Shown here one piece after another: positions 43,578 to 46,110 of a DNA stretch of 64,000 nt; position 1 is the stretch's first letter, and each line of letters opens with the position of its first letter. The stretch lies in contig JAZQDV010000010.1 in the NCBI GenBank assembly GCA_045546975.1, positions 257,039 through 321,038 of the forward strand, written 5' to 3'. The stretch is from Eubacteriales bacterium (GTDB lineage: Bacteria > Bacillota > Clostridia > Oscillospirales > JAAYXM01). The notes under the pieces were generated by a model, which was given only the letters and a program-made list of their open reading frames with translations, had not been told where the DNA came from and searched no databases. The position numbers and the translations under genes were made by a program.

Positions 43578-43615
43578 ACCTCAGTGCCTTTTAATGCACT
43601 GAGGTTAATTTTTTT
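43578..43615. terminator. terminator after nrdR (overlaps the stop of the convergent gene)
   Basis: Stem acctcagtgc/gcactgaggt followed by taattttttt. Confidence 0.7.
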
Positions 43616-44282
43616 GCTTTTCAATTACTATAACATTATCGGAAAGGTCTGCCTGCATCAGAAAAACTTCGGAGTAAGATGTGATTCCTTTTTTTGAAAG
43701 AATGTTTTTTACCCAGGCTTCATTTTTCCCAAGAAGTTCTGTTTGTTTTTTTATAAAAACCCCGTCAGAAATTAGCGTGTATGGGAGAAAAGTGGTGTCG
43801 TTTGTTATTCCGACATCCTCGCGCTTTGCCGTGTCTTTTGAAGCGAAAGGAAAGACACTTAGTTCTCCGCTTGTTTCAAGTATTGCATATTTGACCTCTT
43901 CTATACTAATGAAACCCTTTAGTCTCAGCTCCTCTAAAAGTTCGTCGATTGTAAGACGGATTTTTTTCATTTCCTTCTGGTTGAGTTTTCCGTTTTCTAT
44001 TATTATATTTGTGCGTCCGGATGTAAGCTTGCGAATCTTTCTGCTGTGTATGAAGATGTACGATATGATAAGCTCGAGTGCAACCAGTGTCAGGACAGGA
44101 ATAATGCCGGTAAAAAGGGGAGTGTCATTACTTTGCATTGGCAGGGTGGCAAGCTCTGAAACAAGAAGGGTTACAACGAATTCGGATGCGGAGAGCTCGC
44201 CTACCTGACGCTTGCCCATGGCTCGCAAGGAGATAATAACCAAAAAATAAAGTATGATTGTTCTGAAGAAAACAGTTGTCAT
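43605..44282 (-). CDS. DUF421-domain membrane protein (YetF/YdfS-like)
   Basis: 225 aa. N-terminal TMs with RxxGKRQ-type motif (LRAMGKRQVGELS). C-terminal soluble domain. Confidence 0.7.
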   Translation of the reverse strand: MTTVFFRTIILYFLVIISLRAMGKRQVGELSASEFVVTLLVSELATLPMQSNDTPLFTGIIPVLTLVALELIISYIFIHSRKIRKLTSGRTNIIIENGKLNQKEMKKIRLTIDELLEELRLKGFISIEEVKYAILETSGELSVFPFASKDTAKREDVGITNDTTFLPYTLISDGVFIKKQTELLGKNEAWVKNILSKKGITSYSEVFLMQADLSDNVIVIEKQKN

Positions 44283-44312: not shown

Positions 44313-44341
44313 TTGCAACTTTAAGAAAGATATGCTATACT
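44313..44341 (+). promoter_or_regulatory. sigma-A-type promoter of tRNA-Pro
   Basis: TTGCAA (44313-18), 17-nt spacer, extended -10 TGcTATACT (44333-41). Ends 15 nt upstream of the tRNA. Confidence 0.65.
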
Positions 44342-44355
44342 TTATGAGTTGATAT

Positions 44356-44432
44356 CCGGGTGTGGCGCAGCTTGGTAGCGCGCTTGAATGGGGTTCAAGA
44401 GGCCGCAGGTTCGACTCCTGTCACTCGGACCA
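44356..44432 (+). tRNA. tRNA-Pro (anticodon GGG)
   Basis: 77 nt, folded by hand. Acceptor CCGGGTG/CACTCGG, D-arm GCGC-AGCTTGGTA-GCGC, anticodon arm CTTGA-ATGGGGT-TCAAG (U33, GGG, G37), T-arm GCAGG-TTCGACT-CCTGT, A73, encoded CCA. Confidence 0.9.
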
Positions 44433-44481
44433 GGAAAGCACTGATGACTTTGTCATCGGTGCTTTTTTCTTTTGAACGATA
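44406..44481 (+). repeat. direct repeat copy 1 (tRNA-Pro 3' 27 nt plus terminator)
   Basis: 76 nt, identical to 44592-44667. Confidence 0.95.
44435..44473 (+). terminator. rho-independent terminator of tRNA-Pro
   Basis: Stem aaagcactgatgac/gtcatcggtgcttt, loop ttt, followed by TTTTTTCTTTT. An identical copy lies at 44621-44659. Confidence 0.85.
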
Positions 44482-44507
44482 ACAGAGAGCCTGCGGCCTC
44501 TTTGTCA

Positions 44508-44589
44508 TCCCCGAGCGGTTGCCACGAAAGTGGCGAGCGAGTGGGGACATAATATATCGGGAGCGCGTGTGCAAAGCATACGCACTTCC
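44508..44589 (+). other. two long hairpins in the ORF-free spacer between the repeats
   Basis: Hairpin 1 (44508-44547): GAAA tetraloop and tandem A.G/G.A mismatches. Hairpin 2 (44559-44589): 8-bp stem GCGTGTGC/GCATACGC with an AAA loop. Function unknown. Confidence 0.5.
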
Positions 44590-44591
44590 CT

Positions 44592-44667
44592 CAGGTTCGA
44601 CTCCTGTCACTCGGACCAGGAAAGCACTGATGACTTTGTCATCGGTGCTTTTTTCTTTTGAACGATA
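44592..44667 (+). repeat. direct repeat copy 2 (orphan tRNA-Pro 3' fragment plus terminator)
   Basis: 76 nt, identical to 44406-44481. No matching tRNA 5' half lies upstream. Confidence 0.95.
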
Positions 44668-44682
44668 TTCGAGGGCCAATAC

Positions 44683-44711
44683 TTGATATTTCTCGTCGCA
44701 AATGGTATAAT
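44683..44711 (+). promoter_or_regulatory. sigma-A-type promoter of the NSS transporter gene
   Basis: TTGATA (44683-88), 17-nt spacer, TGgTATAAT (44703-11). Confidence 0.7.
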
Positions 44712-44742
44712 ATATGCAACATTTCAAAATGGAGTGAGGTAA

Positions 44743-46110
44743 ATGCAACAGAGAGAAAAATTTTCATCAAGACTCGGGTTTTTGCTTATATCTGCAGGTT
44801 GTGCCATAGGTCTTGGAAATGTATGGAGATTCCCGTATATAACAGGACTCAATGGTGGTGCAGCGTTTGTACTGATATATCTTTTGTTCCTTGTTATTTT
44901 CGGCCTTCCGATTATGGCGATGGAGTTTTCGGTAGGACGCGCAAGTCGTAAGAGCGTTGCCGCATCGTTCCGTGAGCTTGAGCCGAAGGGAACCAAATGG
45001 CACATATTTAGTTACTTTGCTATGGCGGGCAACTATCTTCTTATGATGTTCTATACCACCATTTGCGGTTGGATGTTTTCGTACTGCGTCAAGATGGCTC
45101 GCGGTGAGTTTGTCGGCGTAGATTCAAATGGGGTAGGTGAAATTTTTTCAAATTTCACGGCAAACCCGTCGGCACTTACGTTCTGGATGATAATTGCGGT
45201 TTTTGTGGGTTTCTTTATTTGCTCTCTTGGACTCCAAAAGGGCGTAGAGAAGATTACGAAAATTATGATGTCCAGTCTCTTTGTTATTATGCTTATACTT
45301 GTCATCCGTTCGGTAACACTTCCGGGCGCGGGTGAAGGTCTTGCATTTTACTTAAAGCCTGATTTTTCAAAGATGGCAGAGCGTGGAATAATGAATGTCG
45401 TTTCCGATGCAATGGGACAGGCTTTCTTTACGCTTAGTATCGGTATCGGATCAATGGCAATCTTCGGAAGCTATATTGATAAAGACCGTTCGCTTATGGG
45501 AGAATCGGTAAGCATTCTTGCGCTTGATACTTCTGTTGCGTTTATGTCGGGACTTATAATTTTCCCCGCATGCTTTGCGTTCAATGTAAATCCGGGACAG
45601 GGACCTGGTCTTGTATTCGTCACACTTCCCAACATTTTCAATGTAATGGCAGGTGGAAGGATCTGGGGAACACTCTTCTTCGTCTTTATGTCCTTCGCGG
45701 CACTTTCAACGGTTGTTGCAGTTTTTGAAAATATTATCGCGTTTGCTATGGATCTTCTCGGTTGGTCGAGAAAAAAGGCAGTATGGGTAAACTTTTTTGC
45801 AATAATTCTTTTGTCTCTCCCGTGTGTTCTTGGATTTAGTGTCTGGAGCGGATTTGAGCCCTTTGGCGCAGGCTCGAACATACTTGATTTAGAGGACTTT
45901 ATCGTAAGTAACAATCTCTTGCCGCTTGGTTCTCTTGTTTATCTTCTTTTCTGTATCACGAGATACGGTTGGGGATGGGATAACTTTATTGAAGAGGCAA
46001 ATGCAGGAAAAGGAATGAGATTCCCGAAATGGGCAAGAGTATATCTCAAATACATTTTGCCGCTCGCAGTGCTTTTCCTCTTTGTTCAGGGATATGTCAG
46101 CAAATTCTAA
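44743..46110 (+). CDS. sodium-dependent transporter, neurotransmitter:sodium symporter (SNF/NSS) family
   Basis: 455 aa, about 11-12 TMs. N-terminal signature GLGNVWRFPY. Confidence 0.9.
   Translation: MQQREKFSSRLGFLLISAGCAIGLGNVWRFPYITGLNGGAAFVLIYLLFLVIFGLPIMAMEFSVGRASRKSVAASFRELEPKGTKWHIFSYFAMAGNYLLMMFYTTICGWMFSYCVKMARGEFVGVDSNGVGEIFSNFTANPSALTFWMIIAVFVGFFICSLGLQKGVEKITKIMMSSLFVIMLILVIRSVTLPGAGEGLAFYLKPDFSKMAERGIMNVVSDAMGQAFFTLSIGIGSMAIFGSYIDKDRSLMGESVSILALDTSVAFMSGLIIFPACFAFNVNPGQGPGLVFVTLPNIFNVMAGGRIWGTLFFVFMSFAALSTVVAVFENIIAFAMDLLGWSRKKAVWVNFFAIILLSLPCVLGFSVWSGFEPFGAGSNILDLEDFIVSNNLLPLGSLVYLLFCITRYGWGWDNFIEEANAGKGMRFPKWARVYLKYILPLAVLFLFVQGYVSKF

Follow-up and report, generated by a model that had tools for sequence, protein, structure and literature searches.

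A duplicated tRNA-Pro(GGG) 3' end bounding a candidate gene-less micro-element in a Clostridia genome

The window, that is, the whole 64-kb stretch of DNA analysed here, possesses a single tRNA gene, identified by both ARAGORN and Rfam as tRNA-Pro(GGG) on the plus strand. The gene lies between a conserved DUF421/YetF-family gene and a gene for a transporter of the sodium:neurotransmitter-symporter family, and the interval between tRNA and transporter contains two hairpins, an inverted piece of the tRNA and a second copy of the tRNA 3' end together with its terminator (Table 1).

Table 1. Features of the tRNA-Pro(GGG) locus; positions are counted from the first nucleotide of the window
Feature	Position	Strand	Evidence
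DUF421/YetF-family gene, conserved left neighbour of the tRNA	43605-44282	-	Pfam PF04239, E=1.5e-37
Promoter-like site of the tRNA gene, TTGCAA-17-TATACT with TG	44313-44341	+	Consensus scan; conserved at orthologous loci
Intact tRNA-Pro(GGG)	44356-44432	+	ARAGORN; Rfam RF00005, 58.8 bits
Repeat copy 1, attL-like: T-arm and acceptor 3' strand, CCA, terminator 1	44406-44481	+	Exact 76-nt repeat
Terminator 1: hairpin AAAGCACTGATGAC/GTCATCGGTGCTTT, then T-run	44435-44473	+	Sequence and fold
Spacer, 110 nt, apparently the imported part of the insert	44482-44591	+	Absent in L209; homologue in L214; no other copy in the window
Inverted tRNA piece, copy of 44397-44412	44487-44502	+	15/16 match; 0/500 shuffles
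Hairpin H1, 15 bp, with AG/AG internal loop, kept in L214	44508-44547	+	Folds; covariance model R1
Hairpin H2; the hairpin of L214 in this position is shorter and of another sequence	44559-44590	+	Folds; alignment
Repeat copy 2, attR-like: displaced tRNA 3' fragment and terminator 2 (hairpin 44621-44659)	44592-44667	+	Exact repeat; no ARAGORN or Rfam tRNA
Promoter of the downstream transporter gene, TTGATA-17-TATAAT with TG; the insert ends before it	44683-44711	+	Consensus scan, 11/12
Sodium:neurotransmitter-symporter-family transporter, right neighbour	44743-46110	+	Pfam PF00209, E=1.7e-61

The two copies form a direct repeat of 76 nt, with starts 186 bp apart, and sequence comparison confirms that they agree without mismatch, as the initial annotation of this DNA had stated. 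The probability of such a repeat by chance is negligible. Allowing for mismatches lengthens the repeat to 89 nt, with 94% identity (44403-44491 and 44589-44677). Copy 1 comprises the last 27 nt of the tRNA gene and 49 nt of terminator region, with the hairpin at 44435-44465; this composition, also proposed earlier, agrees with the tRNA boundaries placed by ARAGORN and Rfam. Copy 2 begins with the same 27 nt in direct orientation (44592-44618) and is called as a tRNA by neither program.

The 110-nt spacer between the copies contains no credible ORF and no integrase, again in agreement with the initial annotation. Three short overlapping reading frames cross it, and no ORF is conserved, since in L214, the related locus described below, H2 has another length and another sequence. 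No Rfam match above noise was found in 44482-44667, and tblastn with two integrases as queries, a search of limited sensitivity, identified no integrase in the 64-kb window. A consensus scan detected no promoter-like site ahead of the spacer, the nearest being those of the tRNA and of the transporter. The spacer with H1 and H2 is strongly structured, with fold z-scores of -5.4 to -11.9. Neither hairpin has significant similarity to the tRNA in either orientation or a template in the window. The reverse-complement match between spacer and tRNA that had been pointed out earlier is present and slightly longer than claimed; it corresponds to the anticodon-stem 3' strand, the variable loop and the T-stem 5' strand of the tRNA.

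Some further features of this region were recorded. Position 44449.5, in the loop of the terminator (44449-44451), is the centre of a mirror symmetry between the tRNA segment 44397-44412 and its inverted copy, and therefore the 106-nt stretch 44397-44502 is one long imperfect palindrome; in L214 the tRNA segment and its inverted copy show no such symmetry. The 10-mer CTTTGTCATC, whose reuse in terminator and spacer had already been observed, is found at 44448-44457, 44500-44509 and also 44634-44643, that is, in the spacer and in both terminators. It is carried by the L214 spacer as well and is missing from the L214 terminator; by our estimate about 0.006 such matches are expected by chance. 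Three other ways of reading the spacer were tried and rejected. A tRNA-like RNA in which GCGAGTG or CCGAGCG would form the 5' strand of a separate acceptor stem received no support from ARAGORN, Rfam or the folds, a tRNA-like gene on the minus strand gave no Rfam match on that strand, and a derivation of H1 from direct and inverted copies of the tRNA D/anticodon region yielded nothing significant beyond the 16-nt piece when alignments were compared with shuffles.

Orthologous loci (L209-L222) were obtained from contigs of related uncultured Clostridia that encode DUF421 homologues. Exact-protein look-ups with the DUF421 protein and the transporter of the window matched no contig, and the relatives fetched via the transporter (L001-L080) have no tRNA upstream of that gene and are uninformative on the insert locus. 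The unit of DUF421 gene, promoter and tRNA-Pro(GGG) is kept at all the loci L209-L222. In the closest relative found, L209, whose neighbour protein is 80% identical to that of the window, DUF421, tRNA-Pro, terminator and transporter follow each other as in the window, but there is one tRNA end, and the ribosome-binding site of its transporter lies 56 nt past the tRNA. A relative with a single-copy site, which the initial annotation had proposed to look for, is therefore at hand. Single copies were also found at L210/211, L213, L215, L216-218 and L221/222. Conservation of the two-copy arrangement across distant relatives, which had been named as an argument against a recent scar, was not encountered: the arrangement is patchy, being present at two of the eight readable orthologous loci, and is not unique to this genome. 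The transporter promoter of the window is taken as native, because in L001 and L002, whose transporter gene has a different genomic location, a weakly similar promoter-like stretch precedes that gene at the corresponding position. From the single copy in L209 and the native transporter promoter it follows that the window has exactly one extra unit of 186 bp, consisting of the 110-nt spacer and one repeat.

The flank behind the tRNA shows several other peculiarities among these loci. In L209 (689-745, minus strand) the transporter follows about 20 nt after the tRNA terminator without a promoter-like site, and transcription from the tRNA-Pro promoter may read through into this gene. Downstream of the orthologous tRNA-Pro genes the terminators are mosaic: the type in the window (44433-44481) is that of L210/L211 (L210:470-547, minus strand), and the type in L209 (700-745, minus strand) is common to L215 (3426-3465 in reverse-strand coordinates). 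This distribution contradicts the DUF421 phylogeny and suggests repeated swapping of the tRNA 3' flank by integrating elements. The gene downstream of tRNA-Pro varies in almost every lineage (window 44433-44742 and the equivalent intervals of L209-L222) and may be a transporter, a P-loop-like protein, a membrane protein, a ceramidase-family gene, the spoIIIA operon or an unannotated ORF, while the upstream block of DUF421, NrdR and SecDF is conserved across L209-L222. tRNA-Pro(GGG) is a synteny breakpoint in this clade.

The second locus with two tRNA-Pro 3' ends at the orthologous position is L214, from an NCBI assembly, in which the ends are 158 bp apart and the DUF421 protein is 65% identical to that of the window. 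The left 66 nt of the two spacers, which span the inverted piece, a short linker and H1, are identical at 61 positions, as compared with about 76% identity for the tRNA promoter (our count on the alignment), and terminator 1 is unalignable. The differences include one A/G in the inverted piece, opposite U/T, a change in the H1 loop, and one double change from A-U to G-C that keeps the H1 pair. All three stem differences keep pairing, and 100% of the cells of H1 are paired in both sequences. By the DUF421 identity matrix the window belongs with L209, L212 and L210, and L214 with L213 and L216; the spacer is missing in the nearest relative found of each. To account for its presence in two subclades whose nearest relatives are without it, the spacer, which is much better conserved than the DNA around it, must have been gained twice or lost several times. 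Judged from this patchy distribution, the spacer appears to be imported, horizontally acquired DNA. As to further copies of the spacer, which the initial annotation had recommended looking for, none is found elsewhere in the window, the homologue in L214 being the one that came to light, and a covariance model built from the two spacers (R1) detected no copy beyond these two in about 1 Mb of fetched loci.

The conservation of the left 66 nt, better than that of the tRNA promoter, might also be expected of a structured non-coding RNA gene with a cellular function, made up of the spacer and copy 2 and ending in a tRNA-like 3' end (T-arm, acceptor strand, CCA and its own terminator). The strong hairpins, the one compensatory pair in H1 and the terminator that always follows copy 2 accord with such a gene, for which, however, no promoter was found and whose first nucleotides would lie directly behind a strong terminator. 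The unit is absent in the nearest relative and in five other orthologous loci, H2 is not conserved, and Rfam matches neither the spacer nor, like ARAGORN, recognizes copy 2 as tRNA-like. The covariation in H1 comes from two sequences and is non-significant, 260 of 500 shuffles doing as well. An RNA gene of this kind is regarded as distinctly unlikely.

The homologous spacer in L214 bears equally on the origin of the duplication, for which the initial annotation had offered three candidates, namely a scar left by an integrated element, a small tRNA-derived element, and a templated local rearrangement. The first two are in keeping with the comparisons and the third is not. In a purely local rearrangement, fork fold-back or template switching at the terminator hairpin would have given the inverted copy and then the second direct copy with no mobile element involved, and both the identity of the two terminators and the mirror symmetry of the inverted arms about 44449.5 speak for it. 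The same spacer, however, stands in L214 with another terminator and no mirror symmetry, by which the reading is largely refuted, and the terminators differ within the other mini-inserts described below. H1 and H2 lack a template in the window and bear no significant resemblance to the tRNA. Local templating does not fit because a distant relative carries a homologous spacer and because no local template exists besides the 16-nt inverted piece; this origin is very unlikely.

Four further loci were identified at which the first tRNA-Pro 3' end is followed at a short distance by a second, partial one, with spacings of 153 bp (L152), 187 bp (L094), 237 bp (L083) and 89 bp (L195). They lie in unrelated genomic contexts, none of the four having a DUF421 neighbour. 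L180, with a spacing of about 300 bp, is a weaker, seventh candidate. In L214 and in these four loci the identity of the repeats ends at or before the CCA and the two terminators differ, as would be expected in the four if one terminator came from the element and the other from the host. The identity running past the tRNA into the terminator, to which the initial annotation had drawn attention, thus holds for the window and is not a property of the class.

The mini-inserts share an inverted tRNA piece, situated 44-57 nt after the CCA and just behind terminator 1. Its occurrence was tested in 108 distinct loci with enough downstream sequence, a set from which L214 was left out as too short. The piece was found in all five loci with a strong second copy as against one of the 103 others, and that one is L180; L214 also has it, which makes six of six mini-inserts. 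The piece is absent wherever a full-length integrase element directly adjoins the core. The tRNA segment that is inverted differs between mini-inserts. In L214 and L083 the inverted piece and the 5' part of core 2 pair and so close the predicted fold around the hairpins; the fold of the window has no such closing, and its inverted piece can pair with just 7 nt of copy 2.

The order of core, short insert, inverted core piece, hairpins and core is the trace expected from integration of a folded single strand. The mini-inserts might accordingly represent, instead of chance products of decay, a distinct family of non-autonomous, gene-less hairpin elements, in which the inverted piece rebuilds a duplex att site in folded single-stranded DNA and a tyrosine recombinase of the host or of another element, supplied in trans, inserts the unit at tRNA-Pro. 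The attC sites of integrons and the attP hairpin of CTX phage are folded single-stranded recombination sites of this sort, and gene-less units of similar size occur among integron cassettes. The likeness to these sites lies in the succession of direct core, insert, inverted core piece, structured spacer and direct core, and the tight association of the inverted piece with the mini-inserts (six of six against 1 of 103 other loci), the closed folds of L214 and L083, the extreme structure of the unit (z-scores of -8.6 to -11.9) and the retention of pairing at all three stem differences between window and L214 would all suit such a family. Yet no recombinase is linked to the mini-inserts, and there is no connection to IntI or XerCD, no attI and no array of the integron kind. 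Different tRNA segments are inverted in different inserts, and the 7-nt pairing between inverted piece and copy 2 in the window is poor and goes unused in the predicted fold. Since any inverted repeat folds, the fold itself carries little weight. Such a family is considered unlikely.

A pair of motifs, CGAGCG and GCGAGTG, surrounds an inner hairpin both in the spacer of the window (44512-44517 and 44532-44541) and in that of L083 (5932-5970), to which it is not otherwise related, with different outer stems, and could be a shared protein-binding motif or a chance resemblance. A hairpin motif common to the two inserts was rejected, as R1 gives no score on the L083 spacer, its sole match in L083 (15.1 bits) falling on the partial tRNA, and as the motif takes another place relative to the tRNA-derived parts.

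The tRNA-Pro(GGG) 3' end is used as an attachment site elsewhere. A scan of viral contigs with the 27-nt tRNA tail identified eight stretches from seven contigs, all of them partial tRNA-Pro(GGG) genes from the anticodon arm on, each with its own terminator, and several adjoin integrase genes. Among viral and metagenome loci carrying the tail, 28 of 128 have tyrosine-integrase homologues in the fetched flanks. The interpretation of the duplication as an attL/attR footprint of a tyrosine-integrase element, put forward in the initial annotation, gains support from these partial 3' ends adjoining integrases in viral and metagenomic contigs. Of the 80 metagenome contigs listed (L089-L168), at least 17 have the core within 100 nt of the contig end, and the contigs of L212, L219 and L220 end inside the tRNA, breaks that fit repeats, strain heterogeneity or a polymorphic site in metagenome assemblies.

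Such frequent breaks mark the site as hard to assemble, and a loop or chimera at the repeated tRNA end could in principle have produced the second copy as an assembly artefact. This is most improbable because independent assemblies show the same layout: L214 has the arrangement with a homologous spacer, and five further assemblies have the same architecture. An assembly path from repeat through spacer to repeat also requires reads in which the spacer is linked with the repeat at either end.

One of the mini-inserts stands in direct connection with an integrase-bearing island. L083 and L086 belong to one contig, IMGVR_UViG_3300024303_000169, which carries a tandem array at tRNA-Pro (L083:5770-6110 and L086:9640-9830). 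The array comprises, in order, a prophage-type integrase, core 1 (a partial tRNA), a terminator, the 237-bp mini-insert, core 2, a 12-kb island and core 3. The island encodes a tyrosine integrase, two ABC ATPases and a LytTR two-component system and is flanked by repeats that include the tRNA-Pro core. A stretch of 156 bp, made up of core 3 and the sequence preceding it, is 98.7% identical to the L083 mini-insert, a direct link between this mini-insert and the arm of an island that bears an integrase. The right arm of the island was seen to be a tRNA-Pro copy from the D-loop onward, broken by a structured insert of about 105 nt with CAAG on both sides. The tandem array was found in L083/L086 only, and the insert of the window is solitary.

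For the window, searches for a parent element returned no relative of the spacer. Pattern scans of viral contigs with spacer motifs and a gapped metagenome scan for the spacer gave nothing, BLASTN of the spacer region matched the tRNA alone in phages and nothing in plasmids, and the spacer is absent from 120 metagenome loci that carry the same tRNA end. The link between mini-insert and parent is seen in the sister case, L083, with its 98.7% identity to the arm of the adjacent island.

The 186-bp unit is probably a solitary, integrase-less, att-flanked micro-element comparable to the microCIMEs of S. salivarius. It was observed that the tRNA is intact and its 3' end duplicated, that the insert is free of genes, that the spacer has a horizontal, patchy distribution, and that integrase elements use this tRNA end elsewhere. 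A tyrosine-integrase element specific for the tRNA-Pro(GGG) 3' end would have integrated at the locus, bringing its own copy of the tRNA 3' end and terminator, as such elements do. Integration would have regenerated an intact, terminated tRNA with copy 1 as attL and displaced the original 3' end and terminator of the host, now copy 2, to attR. What remains between the sites would be arm-proximal DNA of the element, namely a terminator, an inverted core-like piece and two hairpins. The micro-element may have originated by internal deletion of a full element, and any further movement would require either an integrase provided in trans or cis-mobilisation after accretion with an adjacent element. 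The inverted piece and H1 may serve as binding sites for a recombinase or accessory protein, or as folding sites.

Several observations are less easily accommodated by a micro-element of this kind. An identity that continues for 49 nt past the tRNA is not usual in att cores, and needs an element-borne terminator of the same type as that of the host, or gene conversion. As the terminator of the window resembles the native terminator of the single-copy loci L210/L211, either the element probably carried the same type or the copies were homogenised by gene conversion. Perfect 76-bp direct repeats at a distance of 110 bp should be readily deleted, which argues for a young or recently homogenised arrangement. 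From simple decay one would not expect an inverted piece right after terminator 1 in every mini-insert. Finally, the left part of the spacer is common to L214 without a shared terminator 1 or H2, and extra recombination events are required to account for this.

Among known systems, the closest parallels to the micro-element are the microCIMEs, gene-less cis-mobilizable elements of 130-220 bp flanked by att sites in Streptococcus salivarius (Genes 2020;11:999, PMC7563491); the concept of the CIME is defined in PMC5704250. The insert of the window resembles them, by their published description, in being bounded by attL/attR-like direct repeats, in the absence of integrase, transfer or other genes, and in size (a 186-bp unit with a 110-nt spacer), and the sister mini-insert of L083/L086, like the members of the published accretion arrays, is arranged in tandem with elements that bear integrases. 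It differs in its target, which is the 3' end of a tRNA gene rather than of a protein-coding gene, and in its host, an Oscillospiraceae-like member of the Clostridia; the copy in the window is solitary, and the published method is blind to solitary copies. The conserved hairpin and the inverted copy of the target are features of the window. Integration into tRNA genes leaves one complete gene and one fragment (PMC9897764, PMC4383910), and the tRNA fragments of prophages and islands (Islander, PMC4383910; tRNA-fragment survey, PMC9897764) are similar to the present case in the intact, regenerated tRNA at one end with a direct 3' fragment at the other, in an identity block in the T-arm and acceptor, and in the use of the same tRNA end by bona fide integrase elements. 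They enclose kilobases, whereas the interval in the window is 110 nt without an integrase, and its identity extends 49 nt into the terminator. A MITE or IS-derived element would have terminal inverted repeats with a short target-site duplication immediately outside them; in the window no such duplication is seen, the T-run of the terminator to the left of the inverted piece being unrelated to the sequence to the right of the 5' part of the core.

An att-bounded micro-element is a known kind of decayed mobile element; what stands out here is the inverted tRNA piece. Its tight association with the mini-inserts is a testable hint of a required structure rather than of arbitrary deletion end points. 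If the folded hairpin elements considered above were real, gut Clostridia would possess a form of mobility like that of integron cassettes, with a tRNA gene as its target. The insert of the window taken alone is small and probably an inert relic, and leaves the biology of the neighbouring genes unchanged. For the clade, tRNA-Pro(GGG) is a heavily used integration hot spot, and solitary, gene-less, att-bounded micro-elements, described before only beside ICEs and IMEs in streptococci, would exist at tRNA genes of uncultured gut Clostridia as well.
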